From NCBI GenBank assembly GCA_018665965.1, contig JABJBF010000023.1, positions 64,001 to 77,692 on the forward strand: a stretch of 13,692 nt of DNA, written 5' to 3'. The stretch's first letter is position 1, and each line of letters begins with the position of its first letter. The DNA comes from Candidatus Falkowbacteria bacterium (GTDB lineage: Bacteria; Patescibacteriota; Patescibacteriia; UBA11705; JABHMO01). The position numbers and the translations under genes are program-made. This document shows positions 1-13,692 of this stretch, piece by piece. Below the pieces are notes generated by a model. It was given only the letters and a program-made list of their open reading frames with translations. It was not told the origin of the DNA and ran no database searches.

Positions 1-86
1 TGCTTTCATGTTTTTATGTTTTAATGGACAAAAAAACTCCCCAATAGATGCATTGAAGAGTTTTTCTTGACCGTTGCGGTCAGAAA

Positions 87-764
87 TTAGAAGGTTAGCG
101 CTACTGAGGCGAAGAACATATCTCCGCAGTCGCAGTCAGTACAGCGAGGTTGTGCGTTCACCGGCGTTGGCTGATTTGTGGAACTTTGCTTTGTACCGGA
201 TTCTTCCTGATGAAGGTATCCGGCCCAAACTCGAAGCCACTGCCAGGTGAAACTGGGTCCGAACCGATATCGGAAGTTGTCCAGCTTTTCCTGTTCCAGT
301 CCGAGCGAGATGAACATCCTGCGCTCGATCATAAAGTCAAGTGACTCGTAGGTTCTGAAGCCGACCGTGGGTTGGCTCTCGGCATTGTTGGCCTGGATGG
401 GAATGAAAAGATCCGCCTCCAACTTGAAACCTACAACCCGACTTACACGTTGATGCCAGCGACCGGTCAGAGCTACATTGTTGCTGCTCACGCCTGCGCC
501 CAACTGTTGACCAATCATCAGAACCAGTTTACTGTTCCGATCGACGTGGTACAACAGACCAAACATGGCATTCATCGTCTGGTAGTCAGTGATAAATGCA
601 TTGGCCTCGAACAGGACATCGAAGTTGTGAAACGCCCAGGACTCTATTGCACGGCTGAATCGCACGCGCATGTCAAAGTTTGACATATCCACATCTTTTG
701 CTTGCACGTTGCTGGCAAACATAATTATTCCTAAAATCACAAACAAATTGATGAACTTTCTCAT
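87..764 (-). CDS. Secreted hypothetical protein, 225 aa, with a cleavable N-terminal signal peptide and a GC-rich body. The C-terminus ...SVALTF resembles the terminal strand of an outer-membrane beta-barrel. Possibly DUF2490-like, but the family is unsure.
   Basis: The minus-strand ORF starts MRKFINLFVILGIIMFASNVQA-KD, a classic n-h-c signal peptide. A perfect AAGGAGG SD sits 5 nt upstream of the ATG (plus coordinates 765-779). A consensus promoter lies upstream. The body (about 100-640) is roughly 55-60% GC against about 33% for the rest of the window. The C-terminal residue is Phe, preceded by alternating hydrophobic residues. The + strand ORFs at 150-344 and 372-683 overlap antisense and are treated as artefacts. 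Confidence 0.6.
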   Translation of the reverse strand: MRKFINLFVILGIIMFASNVQAKDVDMSNFDMRVRFSRAIESWAFHNFDVLFEANAFITDYQTMNAMFGLLYHVDRNSKLVLMIGQQLGAGVSSNNVALTGRWHQRVSRVVGFKLEADLFIPIQANNAESQPTVGFRTYESLDFMIERRMFISLGLEQEKLDNFRYRFGPSFTWQWLRVWAGYLHQEESGTKQSSTNQPTPVNAQPRCTDCDCGDMFFASVALTF

Positions 765-811
765 GGTATCCTCCTTAAGGGAAAGTTATTTTTCAATCAT
801 CAAATCTTAGT

Positions 812-840
812 ATTATAGCATAGATTATATATTTTGTCAA
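812..840 (-). promoter_or_regulatory. Consensus sigma70 promoter on the minus strand, TTGACA-17nt-TATAAT, driving the 87-764 gene.
   Basis: Plus-strand tgtcaa at 835-840 is the reverse complement of TTGACA. The spacer 818-834 is 17 nt. Plus-strand attata at 812-817 is the reverse complement of TATAAT. That is about 45 nt upstream of the ATG at 764. Confidence 0.5.
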
Positions 841-879
841 TAGTCGTTAAGTAAATTTAGACAAAATTAGTCTACGTAA

Positions 880-1206
880 TTGAAATTTATGGCGGATTCA
901 CTACAAAAAATATTACTTTCTAGATTTAAGAAAAAACCACTGGCTAAACAAATAATGTCCGGTATGGTTGTTGAGTTTGCCAATGGTTTAATGCGTGAAT
1001 TTTGGGGAAAAAAGGGGCACGAGCTGGTTAGAGTTATTTCATTGAAGAGTCAGATCTTGAAAGTTGAGACTGCTAATTCAATTATTGCTCAGGAACTAAA
1101 TTTTAAGAAAAATTCAATAATTGAGGCTATCAACAAGAAATTTGGTGGTCAAATAGTAAAAAAGCTGAAAATTGTACAAACCTCTATTGAAAGACCAGTA
1201 TATTAA
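880..1206 (+). CDS. DUF721-family (DciA-like) small protein, 108 aa.
   Basis: The ORF translation has the recognisable DUF721 pattern ...AKQIMSGMVVEFANGLMREFWGKKGHELVRVISLKSQILKVETANSIIAQELNFKKNSIIEAINKKFGGQIVKKLKI. There is no clear SD. The start could alternatively be M4 at 889. Confidence 0.55.
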   Translation: MKFMADSLQKILLSRFKKKPLAKQIMSGMVVEFANGLMREFWGKKGHELVRVISLKSQILKVETANSIIAQELNFKKNSIIEAINKKFGGQIVKKLKIVQTSIERPVY

Positions 1207-8288: not shown

Positions 8289-8531
8289 ATGAGTGAAAGC
8301 AAGTATAGGCAATGGTTTCGTAAATCATTTTGGCGATCGAATAAAGATAGCAAAGATGGAATCGCTGAAGTTAATGACGGCTGCGTGCAAGCTGTTCTGG
8401 ATTTTGTGAATAAACACGGAATTGGAAGTTCTGATTATAAGATAGTGCCAATAACCTATGGAAGGGACGGCAACGGCGACGATTTTATGAATATTCAGTT
8501 GGCCTATTTTGCTGAAGAAGAGTTGAAATAG
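8289..8531 (+). CDS. Small hypothetical protein A, 80 aa. It is a paralog of the next gene.
   Basis: Strong SD GGAGGTG 5 nt upstream of the ATG. It shares an ordered series of motifs with ORF B: R-[ST]-x-KD, D-x-G-x5-FVN-[KR], aromatic-K-[IL], and the C-terminal Y-[FL]-[AS]-EE-x-L-[KE]. Confidence 0.6.
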   Translation: MSESKYRQWFRKSFWRSNKDSKDGIAEVNDGCVQAVLDFVNKHGIGSSDYKIVPITYGRDGNGDDFMNIQLAYFAEEELK

Positions 8532-8539
8532 GAGGCGTT

Positions 8540-8779
8540 ATGTCAAAAGTAGACACACCTCTAGAGTGGCAGATACGTGTATTCAGAACACACAGTAAAG
8601 ATCACGGTAATACTTATGACGACACTTTTGATGCTGGTCAAAGATTGGCCAAAGAGTTTGTTAATAGAAATAAAGCTGACATTAAGAAATTTAAGTTAAG
8701 TACCGCGATTGGGGATTCAGAGAATAGTTGTTCTTATTATGTGTACGTGTGGTACCTGAGTGAAGAAGCATTGGAGTAG
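8540..8779 (+). CDS. Small hypothetical protein B, 79 aa. It is a paralog of the preceding gene.
   Basis: SD AGGAGG overlaps the TAG stop of ORF A (aaaTAGGAGGcgttATG), indicating translational coupling. The same motif series as ORF A is present (FRTHSKD..DAGQRLAKEFVNRN...FKL...YLSEEALE). Confidence 0.6.
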   Translation: MSKVDTPLEWQIRVFRTHSKDHGNTYDDTFDAGQRLAKEFVNRNKADIKKFKLSTAIGDSENSCSYYVYVWYLSEEALE

Positions 8780-8892: not shown

Positions 8893-9285
8893 ATGAGTAT
8901 TAATGTAAACAAAAATTATCCAGAATCGGAATTAACTGATAAAATAATAGGTGCAGCATTTGAAGTTTAAAATAGCTTAGGCAGTGGGCATAGAGAAAAG
9001 TATTATCAGTTGGCACTTGCTAAAGAGTTTAGACTTAATAAGATAAGGTATAAGGAACAGGTTAGAGTAGATCTTTTGTATAAAGGAGAAAAAATTGGTC
9101 GAAGAATATTTGATTTCGTTATAGATGGGCGGGTTGTCGTTGAGTTGAAGGTTGGTAGTTATCTTGCTAAAAGTGAATTCGATCAAATTAATGATTATTT
9201 AAGAATTTCTGGAAAAAAAGTTGGTTTGTTAATTTTATTTTCAAATAAAGGTGTTAAAATACGACGTGTTGTAAATTTAAAATAA
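8893..9285 (+). pseudogene. GxxExxY-family (PD-(D/E)xK nuclease fold) gene interrupted by a single in-frame TAA at 8968-8970.
   Basis: Reading from ATG 8893 gives MSINVNKNYPESELTDKIIGAAFEV*NSLGSGHREKYYQLALAKEF.... This continues in frame into the track ORF at 9010-9285 (...RRIFDFVIDGRVVVELKVGSYLAK...GLLILFSN). It matches the family consensus, including IIGAA.EV, the G-x-x-E-x-x-Y motif (GHREKYY) and the D...ELK catalytic motif. The stop replaces the usual His/Tyr after EV. There are no frameshifts. Confidence 0.65.
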
Positions 9286-10896: not shown

Positions 10897-10902
10897 AGTT
10901 AG

Positions 10903-10935
10903 AAAAAAGCCCTAACCGATTGTCTGGTTAGGGCT
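10903..10935 (-). terminator. Intrinsic terminator oriented for minus-strand transcripts.
   Basis: Perfect 9-10 bp stem gccctaacc / ggttagggc with an 8-nt loop. AAAAAA precedes it on the plus strand, which is a U-run on the minus strand. Confidence 0.45.
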
Positions 10936-10985
10936 GTAGCGAAGCACACCTTCCGCTCGGGGCAGAGCGAGGAGGATTGTAAATC
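10903..10985 (-). ncRNA. Candidate small RNA of about 80 nt on the minus strand, with a CCUCCUC anti-SD motif, two GC hairpins and an intrinsic terminator.
   Basis: The minus-strand reading is ...tttact-17-tataat (plus-strand attata at 10987-10992), then uugauuuacaauCCUCCUCgcucugccccgagcg (hairpin), gaaggugugcuucgc (hairpin), and a terminator hairpin plus U-run. There is no ORF. This rests purely on structure and promoter logic. Confidence 0.25.
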
Positions 10986-11114
10986 AATTATAATATATGT
11001 AATGAAACAAGTAAAGTGAGATCACGTACCGAAATAAGGTCAAGAGCTTGGCAACATTTGTAGTGGAGTTAAATGTAATTAATTCTAGGATATAAATGTT
11101 CATAATTATTGTAT

Positions 11115-11245
11115 TTAGCCACCTGGCCCTGAAAGGGCCAGGCTAAGTTTTGTAAAGGCTACTAAAGTAGCCTGAAGAGACTTAGCCCCATTTATGGGGG
11201 TTTAGAATACAAATAGCCTGGGGTTTTCAACCCCAGGTGGCTAAG
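11115..11245. repeat. GC-rich nested inverted-repeat element with four hairpins and the GGCTAAG/CTTAGCC motif four times. It is a candidate structured ncRNA or riboswitch-like switch, or alternatively a MITE-like palindromic repeat.
   Basis: Hairpin A is 11115-11147 (ttagcc-ca-cctggccc-tgaaa-gggccagg-ctaag). Hairpin C is 11157-11172 (ggctac-taaa-gtagcc). Hairpin D is 11186-11199 (cccca-ttta-tgggg). Hairpin B is 11214-11245 (tagcctgggg-ttttcaa-ccccagg-tgg-ctaag). The 5' half of A (ttagccacctgg, 11115-11126) is perfectly complementary to the 3' half of B (ccaggtggctaa, 11233-11244). This gives mutually exclusive local and long-range folds. Confidence 0.4.
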
Positions 11246-11299
11246 TAGGCAAAATTTAACTCATTAATATTGCAAAGGTATTGAACCATTACGACGTAC

Positions 11300-11328
11300 T
11301 TGACAATTTAAGATTTATGTTATATACT
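11300..11328 (+). promoter_or_regulatory. Consensus sigma70 promoter TTGACA-17-TATACT for the zinc-ribbon gene.
   Basis: ttgaca is at 11300-11305, with a 17-nt spacer and tatact at 11323-11328. Alternatively TGn-TATATA (extended -10) at 11318-11326. Confidence 0.6.
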
Positions 11329-11371
11329 GTATTCTTCTAGTGACAGCTGTTAATTTAGTGGAGGTAATATC

Positions 11372-11581
11372 ATGAGTGTTGTAATTTGTCGGGACTGCGG
11401 GAAAAGCAAGTCTTTTTCTGCAATTGTCAGTGAGACTGGAGTGTGCAAGGATTGTGATGGGAAGCTGAGTGGTGAGAGAAGGACTCAGGCGCGCAATGCA
11501 GCGACATTCTCCACGTTCAAATTTGGCTCTGACAGAGAGAGGGAGGAAAGAATTGCTCATTTGGCCAGTATTGATCGCTAA
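11372..11581 (+). CDS. Small C4 zinc-ribbon protein of 69 aa (CxxC-x15-CxxC at the N-terminus, charged C-terminal tail). It resembles FmdB/zinc-ribbon-type putative regulators. GC-rich.
   Basis: SD GGAGG at 11360-11364 lies 7 nt before the ATG. MSVVICRDCGKSKSFSAIVSETGVCKDCDGKL.... A consensus promoter lies upstream and a strong terminator follows the stop. GC is about 48-50% against about 33% for the genome. The overlapping minus ORF at 11315-11674 and the + ORF at 11469-11657 are treated as artefacts. Confidence 0.6.
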   Translation: MSVVICRDCGKSKSFSAIVSETGVCKDCDGKLSGERRTQARNAATFSTFKFGSDREREERIAHLASIDR

Positions 11582-11611
11582 TAAGTATTTAGCTAGAAAT
11601 GATACACAAGA

Positions 11612-11642
11612 AGGCGCGAAACAATGTTTCGCGCCTTTTTTA
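11612..11642 (+). terminator. Strong rho-independent terminator.
   Basis: aggcgcgaaaca-a-tgtttcgcgcct is a perfect 12-nt inverted repeat (11612-11636) followed by TTTTTT. Confidence 0.7.
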
Positions 11643-11915
11643 GTACATTTTGAATAAAAATGCCCCAAATGCACTGTGCAAATGGGGCTCCTCCAGATTT
11701 AGGTGCAGCCATATAGGGATTGTTACTGAATACAGCTTCTACTGCAATTCTCAAATTTTAGCTATTATCTCCTAAAATTCTTTCAACAATATTAATACAT
11801 TGCCTCATGAATTTTTGAAGATTCTATCACAGGATTTTAGAGTTTCGTGACGAACCTGTTTTCTGTAACAAGCCCTTAAGGAGGACTGAGCAATATAGCA
11901 TACATTTTTGGTTTT

Positions 11916-11962
11916 GTCAACCTGTTGTTCTACAGCCATGCAGTATCGCATGGCAGGTTGAC
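11916..11962 (+). promoter_or_regulatory. Nested stem-loop just upstream of the putative serS promoter. An orphan AAGGAGG at 11877-11883 precedes it.
   Basis: gtcaacctg(9 bp)-ttgttctacag-ccatgc-agtatc-gcatgg-caggttgac. An overlapping second hairpin follows: accttg...caaggt (11961-11987). The element lies within a 560-nt ORF-free region. Confidence 0.3.
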
Positions 11963-11991
11963 CTTGAGTTGACCGAAAGGCCAAGGTTATT

Positions 11992-12020
11992 TTGCTAAAT
12001 TTTGTGATATTTAGTATAAT
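11992..12020 (+). promoter_or_regulatory. Candidate sigma70 promoter TTGCTA-17-TATAAT for serS.
   Basis: ttgcta is at 11992-11997, with a 17-nt spacer and tataat at 12015-12020. A second TATAAT lies at about 12127-12132, after a ccccttgggg palindrome. Confidence 0.45.
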
Positions 12021-12200
12021 AGTTCATATGAAAACACCTAATAAACAATACTAAATACCCAATTCTTACTGAAAATTATCGACTGGACATTTCATATTGT
12101 ATATTTTCCTATTTTTCCCCTTGGGGGTATAATATTTTTGATATTTTATAAATATCTCAACTCTTAACTTTATAAACTTTTTAACTTTTAACTAAATAAT

Positions 12201-13478: not shown

Positions 13479-13692
13479 ATGCTAAACCCAGAATCCCAAC
13501 AATTAACTGAAAAATCTCTCCACGCTAACTTCACTGAAAGTCAGCAACGACATTTTGATAAATTAATGTCTGAGTTGGAAGTGCTTTCAGGTGGCTTAGG
13601 CTTTGCTGAACTTAAAGTAAAAGCTGAAGCTGGTGATAAAGAAGCGCTTCAAGTGATGCGCGATTATATTGCGAAGAAAGAACAAATTGTGG
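13479..13692 (+). CDS. Partial ORF (N-terminal 71 codons, running off the window), hypothetical protein.
   Basis: The ATG at 13479 is 12 nt after the serS stop. The frame stays open to the window end (MLNPESQQLTEKSLHANFTESQQRHFDKLMSELEVLSGGLGFAELKVKAEAGDKEALQVMRDYIAKKEQIV). It is not in the ORF track, presumably because it is incomplete. Confidence 0.35.
   Translation, partial: MLNPESQQLTEKSLHANFTESQQRHFDKLMSELEVLSGGLGFAELKVKAEAGDKEALQVMRDYIAKKEQIV

Follow-up and report, generated by a model that had tools for sequence, protein, structure and literature searches.

The minus-strand gene at positions 87..764 of a 13,692-nt stretch of DNA from Candidatus Falkowbacteria bacterium (GenBank assembly GCA_018665965.1, contig JABJBF010000023.1; this whole stretch is hereafter called the window) appears, from sequence comparisons, to be native and vertically inherited, and it belongs to a small set of genes whose codon choice is inverted relative to that of the housekeeping genes of the same loci and dominated by NNC codons. 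As a whole, the observations are best explained by a native, stand-alone gene for a highly expressed barrel channel that would function in a second membrane and has kept its GC-rich composition, a reading that we hold with moderate confidence. All results are computational. The codon-usage inversion is unusual and evolutionarily stable: orthologous genes with a GC content at third codon positions (GC3) of 0.6-0.9 in genomes with a GC3 of ~0.3, with saturated synonymous sites and AT-rich spacers, are a counter-example to the equation of atypical GC with recent transfer, and the gene set is a system for asking what can hold synonymous sites far from mutational equilibrium. In addition, conserved and strongly signalled predicted beta-barrels in a phylum treated as monoderm bear on the way in which ultrasmall epibionts contact and exploit their hosts, and on whether all lineages of the candidate phyla radiation (CPR) are truly without a second lipid layer. 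The protein is small and easily expressed, so that channel activity and membrane insertion are directly testable.

Base composition of the gene

The GC content of the gene was 49.4%, with 51.1% in the part encoding the mature protein and 55% in the highest 200-nt window, and this compared with 35.4% in the rest of the window and a mean of 36.7% in the 31 other genes of the same genome that formed the comparison set, taken from the ~41 kb of the source genome that could be read. GC3 was 0.60 in the gene and 0.30 on average in the 31 genes (z = 5.3), and the cytosine content at third codon positions (C3) was 0.33 and 0.11, respectively (z = 6.5), so the codon comparison with flanking genes that an initial annotation of the window had called for identified the gene as an outlier. 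Within the ~41 kb it was the sole strong GC outlier, the highest 600-nt window reaching 0.517 against a mean of 0.36 (sd 0.036). The contrast described in that annotation is therefore real, but its figures, 55-60% against about 33%, were too high for the gene and slightly too low for the remainder. A sharp GC step had also been placed right after the signal-peptide codons. This turned out to be largely an amino-acid effect, because the low GC of the first 60 nt reflects a signal peptide rich in Lys, Phe, Ile, Asn, and Leu, and the GC3 of these codons was already 0.50. The opposite extreme of the window, with the lowest GC3 (0.17), was the gene for a 91-aa PD-(D/E)XK_3 (GxxExxY-type) protein at 9010-9285.

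Genomic position and origin of the gene

An exhaustive HMMER search of 1.84 billion representative proteins (1.84e9) returned a family of only five clusters, P0001-P0005, of 217-235 aa, where P0001 is the window protein. The identity to the latter was 37% for P0003, 31% for P0004, and 24% for P0005, and a homologue in locus L006 was 45% identical. Three of the four other clusters (P0003, P0004, and P0005; the loci with a homologue in this slot are L008, L012, and L022) lie, as in the window, between dciA and a UvrD/PD-(D/E)XK helicase gene (uvrD/addA), and are transcribed against their neighbours in the same orientation as the window gene. The genomes that share this slot are well diverged, with MreB 80-87%, ProRS 53-76%, and MreC 54-63% identical, and the relationships of the gene itself, ((window, L022), (L008, L012)), match those given by the pairwise identities of MreB, ProRS, MreC, MreD, and UvrD. 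The conserved slot and orientation in diverged relatives, along with relationships that match those of housekeeping genes, argue for vertical inheritance. No homologue outside the clade was found among the 1.84e9 representatives; genome scans of GTDB species representatives and IMG/VR, as well as tblastn against phage and plasmid collections, gave no relatives, and a scan of JGI metagenomes re-found the P0003 locus and nothing else. Collectively, this showed that the family is restricted to this clade, usually in the dciA-uvrD slot.

The abrupt GC change is the only observation in favour of an assembly chimera, i.e., a GC-rich fragment of another organism joined to a CPR contig near position 780, as the initial annotation had considered. 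The window was 100% identical over 10,764 nt, both junctions included, to contigs of independent ENA, JGI, and NCBI (GCA_018670895.1) assemblies, and the exact P0001 sequence has entries in 53 blocks of the collection, where the contigs carrying it reach 448 kb. The protein is identical to the hypothetical protein HN858_00875 of Candidatus Falkowbacteria and is found under four NCBI accessions, all of them metagenome-assembled genome (MAG) records of Candidatus Falkowbacteria bacterium. Moreover, the AT-rich promoter and 5' untranslated region (5' UTR) showed recognisable homology to the corresponding regions of the L006 gene, whose product is 45% identical, and the same arrangement was present in four further lineages. 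A chimera thus has a negligible probability, and the gene was shown to belong to a marine Falkowbacteria-like patescibacterium.

The annotation had also proposed a recent horizontal acquisition, here taken to mean that a diderm with a GC-rich genome donated a gene for an outer-membrane protein, which then came under host-optimal signals. The codon usage does resemble that of a Gram-negative genome of ~60% GC, the predicted fold is of the outer-membrane-protein type, and the locus varies between lineages, with one to three GC-rich genes in differing order. As in horizontally acquired genomic islands, there is a strong compositional contrast with the flanks, a lineage-variable gene content, and an opposite orientation. 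Unlike such islands, the gene occupies a slot, in a fixed orientation, that is conserved across deep divergence, its relationships are congruent with those of housekeeping genes, and its homologues, only 24-37% identical, are equally GC3-rich with saturated synonymous sites and no amelioration. The promoter and 5' UTR shared with L006, the lack of outside donors among the representative proteins, the end of GC-richness at the borders of the coding sequences (CDS), and the absence from the flanks of convincing direct or inverted repeats, tRNA, or mobility genes speak in the same sense, and we regard recent acquisition as very unlikely. The existence of homologues with similar GC in relatives corresponds to the case described beforehand as a native and merely compositionally odd gene.

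Two contexts weigh against strictly vertical descent. The family members of L006 and L019 have different genomic surroundings, and in L019 (10001-10636 and 11034-11957) a member of the paralogous family described below stands on a contig of ~48% GC beside a 31% GC ORFan. A BLAST local alignment of this paralogue with its counterpart in the AT-rich L012 lineage gave 61% identity, and the sodA and ahpC genes of its contig share its high C3 (0.44-0.45). The L019 member may mean that the family has moved laterally or that the contig comes from a higher-GC relative, and some lateral movement among lineages is possible.

Maintenance of the GC-rich codon usage

The homologues had a GC3 of 0.55-0.70 and a C3 of 0.33-0.48, while their neighbours had values of ~0.28-0.35 and 0.04-0.19. 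At conserved residues, the number of identical codons equalled the chance expectation from codon usage (35 against 35.2, and 38 against 39.4), indicating that synonymous sites are saturated. Since the composition has not drifted to the genomic value despite this saturation, it appears to be actively maintained.

Analysis of the same slot in relatives extended the observation to other genes. A 204-211-aa secreted beta-rich protein (GC3 0.72-0.89) is encoded there, along with a 353-aa protein, likewise secreted, in which Cys residues form an acidic cluster (CEVCDECNEYECDECDICVCEICDE; GC3 0.79). In an hhalign comparison (probability 90.6%, E = 1.3e-6, 179 columns), the former proved distantly paralogous to the target family; it comprises 11 clusters, none of them named. 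Each GC-rich slot gene of the relatives has its own TTGACA-17-TGnTAnnnT promoter and GGAGG, and those with downstream sequence examined end in a hairpin and T-run terminator. The spacers between GC-rich genes are AT-rich (GC 0.25-0.43), so GC-richness is confined to the coding sequences. When the codon usage of ten GC-rich genes was pooled and compared with that of fifteen housekeeping genes from the same loci, the inversion was evident for C-ending codons as well as for CTG and AAG (Table 1). Part of the C-over-G excess is expected of an opposite-strand gene, given the background skew (T>A, G>C), but this does not explain a doubling or tripling of total GC3.

Table 1. Pooled share of selected codons in GC-rich and housekeeping genes of the same loci.
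Codon	GC-rich genes (ten)	Housekeeping genes (fifteen)
TAC	94%	19%
TTC	86%	18%
AAC	81%	18%
ATC	74%	12%
GAC	72%	20%
CTG	46%	7%
AAG	78%	36%

Other GC-rich elements were seen in the related loci. A 107-123-aa Cys-rich protein (...HKPDGCNGPMRVVHVGNQKTVLCCDGCG...) with no signal peptide is encoded beside dciA in L008 (6859-7203), L012 (8440-8811), L014 (532-867), and L020 (180-503); its gene reaches a GC3 of 0.80 though it lies on the majority strand, and it is absent at this position in the genome of the window. In L008 (19000-20708), a TTGACA-17-TGcTATAAT promoter at about 19060-19090 precedes a short GC-rich stretch, and from 19600 to the end of the locus the GC content is 0.55-0.70, with no convincing open reading frame (ORF) and no Rfam match. 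This last segment may be a further GC-rich gene running off the locus, or an RNA of a new kind.

Predicted fold of the protein

The N-terminus was read by eye as a signal peptide, MRKFINLFVILGIIMFASNVQA followed by KD, without a lipobox Cys or a twin-arginine motif, and an equivalent N-terminus was present in all five family members. AlphaFold was unusable with two sequences (pLDDT 42), and the model was generated with the five-member alignment (pLDDT 72, pTM 0.67; four of the five models at 68-72). It contains 11 antiparallel strands of 10-14 residues as assigned by DSSP, and every one of them is dyad-patterned, with face means of +1.1 to +3.3 on one side against -0.2 to -2.2 on the other (Kyte-Doolittle). 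Independently of the model, one strand face is variable but hydrophobic and the other is polar and bears invariant residues, namely R35, Q62, Q86, R102, Q105, E116, R137, E157, and E159. Because the conserved face is charged and the variable one hydrophobic, this pattern suggests a water-filled transmembrane barrel and not a soluble barrel with a hydrophobic core. The initial annotation had guessed an outer-membrane beta-barrel from the C-terminal end, ...SVALTF, which is real (the ORF ends in ...FFASVALTF), and the hydrophobic and conserved charged faces of all predicted strands support the guess. The terminal residue is F in four members and L in the remaining one.

KdgM was the top Foldseek match (target-normalised TM-score 0.60, E = 5e-4, probability 1.0); NanC, FadL, and PcoB came next, intimin and OmpG ranked lower, and the model superposed best on KdgM, VhGalP, and NanC. 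The product shares with the KdgM/NanC porins (PF06178; 4fqe/4pr7, 2wjq/2wjr, 8xua) a mature length of ~200 residues, a Sec signal peptide, a small monomeric barrel, here a predicted one, whose lumen is charged, and an aromatic residue at the C-terminus. It differs in having no detectable sequence similarity to them (6-12% identity in structural alignments), in the 11 strands predicted at pLDDT 72 against their 12, in an extra linker of ~28 residues with an acidic Cys3 motif before the last strand, and in a host phylum that is regarded as monoderm. Other structurally matching barrels were the PcoB copper channel (7pge), the COG4313 channel (4rl8), the beta-domains of intimin and autotransporters (5g26, 3aeh), OpcA, and OmpG; none has a sequence relationship with the product, for which neither a passenger domain nor a plug helix is predicted. 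As in outer-membrane proteins that depend on BAM, there is a signal peptide and a last strand of alternating hydrophobic residues with a terminal Phe (Leu in one member). By its predicted fold, the protein would work like a small porin of the KdgM/NanC type, and by sequence it belongs to no described family. It is a new family that, together with its paralogue, makes up a small, clade-specific set of predicted outer-membrane-like barrels.

The linker and the Cys3 motif are absent from the paralogous 204-211-aa family, and the relatives have a similar cluster, C-x-[DE]-C-[DNE]-C, in the 353-aa secreted protein that is encoded alongside. The motif is conjectured to be a candidate site for metal binding or for a disulfide with a partner, and a parallel with metal transport, as in PcoB, is likewise conjecture.

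Several points weigh against a membrane barrel. The model is based on five sequences and its confidence is moderate. Eleven is an odd strand count, so that one strand may be missed or donated by a partner, and we know of no odd strand number in bacterial outer-membrane proteins. In addition, Pfam, NCBIfam, PHROGs, PADLOC, and PDB gave no sequence match, outer-membrane-protein families included; in Pfam, there was none at E <= 1 for the window protein and none at E <= 10 for the five members, and the DUF2490 profile proposed in the initial annotation was therefore not recovered. These observations, and the description of the phylum as monoderm (PMC11665869), would agree with a secreted beta-rich protein outside any membrane, for example one associated with the wall or a soluble binding barrel or sandwich. 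This reading would need no second membrane and would put the porin-like model down to the shallowness of the alignment. The agreement of four of the five AF2 models argues otherwise, as do the conserved C-terminal aromatic strand and an arrangement of charged, conserved and hydrophobic, variable faces that is the reverse of that of a soluble barrel. We consider a non-membrane beta protein rather unlikely, and favour the transmembrane barrel.

Membrane context and proposed function

The Patescibacteria are described as monoderm, and the CPR has been placed in a clade that lost the outer membrane, porins, and outer-membrane tethers (PMC11665869; PMC8871954; 10.1101/2021.05.31.446380). Within the ~41 kb of this genome that could be read, there was no outer-membrane gene. 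In such a phylum, a second bilayer would be needed for a single-chain barrel whose belt faces lipid. In the mechanism that we propose from the model and the sequence, the product would be very highly expressed, as its signals suggest, exported by Sec, and cleaved after VQA. It would then fold into a single-chain, porin-sized transmembrane beta-barrel with a lumen lined by the invariant Arg, Glu, and Gln residues, a long last loop carrying the acidic Cys3 motif, and a C-terminal strand resembling a beta-signal. Such a barrel would serve as a channel by which small solutes, hydrophilic or charged, diffuse across a lipid layer external to the cytoplasmic membrane.

As to which layer this might be, the most likely placement, itself tentative, is the outer membrane of a diderm partner cell, where the barrel would insert at the contact site and serve as a nutrient conduit. 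An unrecognised outer layer of the bacterium itself is a less likely location, to which we give a low probability. In a more general and equally improbable form, this clade of Patescibacteria would keep a small set of outer-membrane-type porin genes and deploy them in a second membrane, be it that of the host, as an effector porin opening the envelope for nutrients, or an own, unseen layer. By analogy with T-DNA genes, the proteobacterium-like codons, sigma-70 promoter, Shine-Dalgarno sequence, terminator, and Sec and beta-signals could even be adaptations for expression and assembly in a GC-rich diderm host, a radical version that we rate as highly improbable. A search of the full-text literature found no description of such barrels in this phylum or of a stable codon-usage inversion, although absence cannot be proven in this way.

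Possible causes of the composition

The cause assigned to the GC-rich composition is the weakest part of the proposal. Our first choice is that the GC-rich synonymous sites would be kept by selection linked to very high expression or mRNA stability, which we favour because it fits the maximal expression signals and the preference for NNC codons. Highly expressed genes reportedly prefer, universally, the C-ending codons for Phe, Tyr, Ile, and Asn, and similarly TTC, TAC, ATC, and AAC rise here from 12-19% to 74-94%. The resemblance to selected codon bias is incomplete, and the following observations weigh against it. G-ending and CTG/CGC codons rise too, and the increase in G-ending codons is not explained by expression selection; an atpD fragment of the same genome (GC3 0.27, C3 0.08) shows no shift, and neither do mreB and greA. 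To our knowledge, the magnitude of the codon shift exceeds any known example of expression-selected bias. Simple translational selection as the full cause is doubtful, given that atpD, mreB, and greA are unbiased, and secretion as such was rejected because the lipoprotein and PBP2 genes of the same loci are AT-rich.

A mutational or recombinational bias that is specific to these genes would act without selection, for example through GC-biased gene conversion (gBGC) at a frequently recombining surface-protein locus or through very strong head-on transcription. Gene content and order at the locus differ between lineages and strains, the proteins evolve faster than their neighbours (25-42% against 50-87% identity), both C- and G-ending codons are enriched, and the opposite-strand orientation can explain C3 > G3, mirroring the background skew of G>C and T>A. 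Three observations oppose such a bias. The AT-rich spacers between adjacent GC-rich genes are unaffected, while conversion tracts should not respect CDS borders; GC-rich small genes are found on the other strand in relatives; and the known effects of gBGC in bacteria, a few percent of GC3, are too small for a change from 0.3 to 0.6-0.9. This bias seems fairly improbable to us, and selection linked to expression or mRNA stability is retained as the first choice.

Gene structure and expression signals

The features of the gene are listed in Table 2. It is a self-contained monocistronic unit, with a promoter, an unstructured 5' UTR, a consensus Shine-Dalgarno sequence, the CDS, and a terminator, as indicated by its own promoter, Shine-Dalgarno sequence, and 3' hairpins. 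It lies divergent from dciA (889..1206), and its convergent neighbour ends 33 nt before the start of the window. The perfect TTGACA-17-TATAAT promoter noted in the initial annotation is real, with a 12/12 match that ranks first among 62 promoter-like sites in the window, and so is the AAGGAGG at 5 nt from the ATG. Homologous promoters precede the orthologues and the neighbouring GC-rich genes. The CTAAATTTA motif upstream occurs once in 20.7 kb of L001 and once in L006, and could perhaps be an UP element or an operator. Folding of the 5' UTR gave no significant secondary structure (z = -0.5), hence no regulatory structure. The second hairpin after the stop codon resembles a bidirectional intrinsic terminator that would be shared with the convergent upstream gene, and the orthologues have canonical hairpin and T-run terminators.

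Table 2. Features of the gene and its product, in window coordinates.
Feature	Position	Strand	Description
CDS	87..764	-	225 codons and stop TAA at 89..87; GC 0.494, GC3 0.60, C3 0.33
Sigma-70-type promoter	812..840	-	-35 TTGACA (840..835), 17-nt spacer, extended -10 TG (820..819), -10 TATAAT (817..812)
CTAAATTTA motif	852..860	-	11 nt upstream of -35; conserved ahead of the promoter of the L006 homologue; found again in spacers of the islands in relatives
5' UTR	765..805	-	About 41 nt, AT-rich, partly conserved with L006 (TTGATRATTGA); transcription start probably near 805
Shine-Dalgarno AAGGAGG	776..770	-	5 nt before ATG, within the 5' UTR
Two hairpins after the stop codon	30..82	-	-24.1 kcal/mol, z = -5.35; in the second, an A-run is paired to a U-run
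Sec-type signal peptide, residues 1-22	699..764	-	n-region MRK, 14-residue hydrophobic core, site between VQA and KD; AlphaFold helix at residues 2-17
Ten antiparallel amphipathic beta-strands, residues 30-186	207..677	-	Most of the predicted barrel
Variable low-complexity S/T/Q/P-rich linker, residues 187-207	144..206	-	Predicted disordered, pLDDT ~33
Acidic tri-cysteine motif C-x2-C-x-C-G-D, residues 208-215	120..143	-	C211 and C213 invariant
Last beta-strand DMFFASVALTF, residues 215-225	90..122	-	Alternating hydrophobic residues, terminal Phe; beta-signal-like

GC-rich segments of AT-rich genomes are often RNA genes, and the ORF could on this ground be spurious, the stretch being a structured RNA or another non-coding element. 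No Rfam or tRNA match was found for it, the order GC3 > GC1 > GC2 is coding-like, amino acids are conserved while synonymous sites are randomised, and the signal peptide, Shine-Dalgarno sequence, and ATG are kept in the family members examined. A spurious ORF is thus extremely improbable, and this codon-level conservation rules out a structured RNA or tRNA. The plus-strand ORFs at 74..250, 150..344, and 372..683 were read as artefacts of GC-rich sequence, as were opposite-strand or off-frame gene calls in L012 and L020 (GC1 0.8-0.9). The gene had been called the only one on the minus strand of the window; this holds for credible protein genes, but this strand has another near-consensus promoter (11920..11892), from which a short unit that lacks a long ORF is driven.

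Other features of the window and related loci

The plus strand of the window carries ordinary core genes (DciA, ProRS, MreB/C/D, PBP2, GreA, LysRS, and SerRS). One ENA assembly (L004 1-3533) is identical to window positions 1..1038 and then diverges, the breakpoint at 1038 lying inside dciA. Only the first 50 codons of dciA are left, and BREX genes come next, for BrxB and a large BrxC-like ATPase. The assembly is either misjoined here or derived from a strain in which a defence island has entered dciA. Downstream of greA there are two small ORFs of 80 and 79 aa (8289-8531 and 8540-8779), tandem paralogues with no Pfam match. Apparently four copies of this family stand at the same place in L022 (329-1666), as judged by eye from a shared ...AFANKHGL...-type motif, with GC 0.44-0.50 and GC3 0.44-0.56, and the GC of the window copies is 0.38-0.40.

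The 1.4-kb gap between lysS and serS (10900-12200), in which no Rfam family scored above threshold, holds the second- and third-best promoter matches of the window, at 11300-11328 (plus strand, 11/12) and 11920-11892 (minus strand, 11/12 with TG). It also contains a 69-aa Cys-rich zinc-ribbon-like ORF (11372-11581; GC 0.476) with a GGAGG and a terminator hairpin at 11611-11637, and four GC-rich hairpins clustered at about 11118-11245. The minus-strand unit of ~240 nt (about 11885 to 11650) is a candidate small RNA, since it lacks a long ORF and terminates in a hairpin and T-run.

At the end of the window, 13479-13692 is the 5' part of a 352-aa gene of a multi-copy family with no Pfam match and a highly conserved N-terminal domain (...LHA[SN]FTE.QQRHFDKLMSELEV.SGGLGFAELK.KAEAG.KEALQVMRDYI...). 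The window is closely preceded by three tandem copies and closely followed by three more, all in one orientation (L001 10797-13764; L016 11279-15869), and the block with gene 87..764 thus has direct repeats of this family on either side. The copies share a 167-nt stretch at 84% identity.

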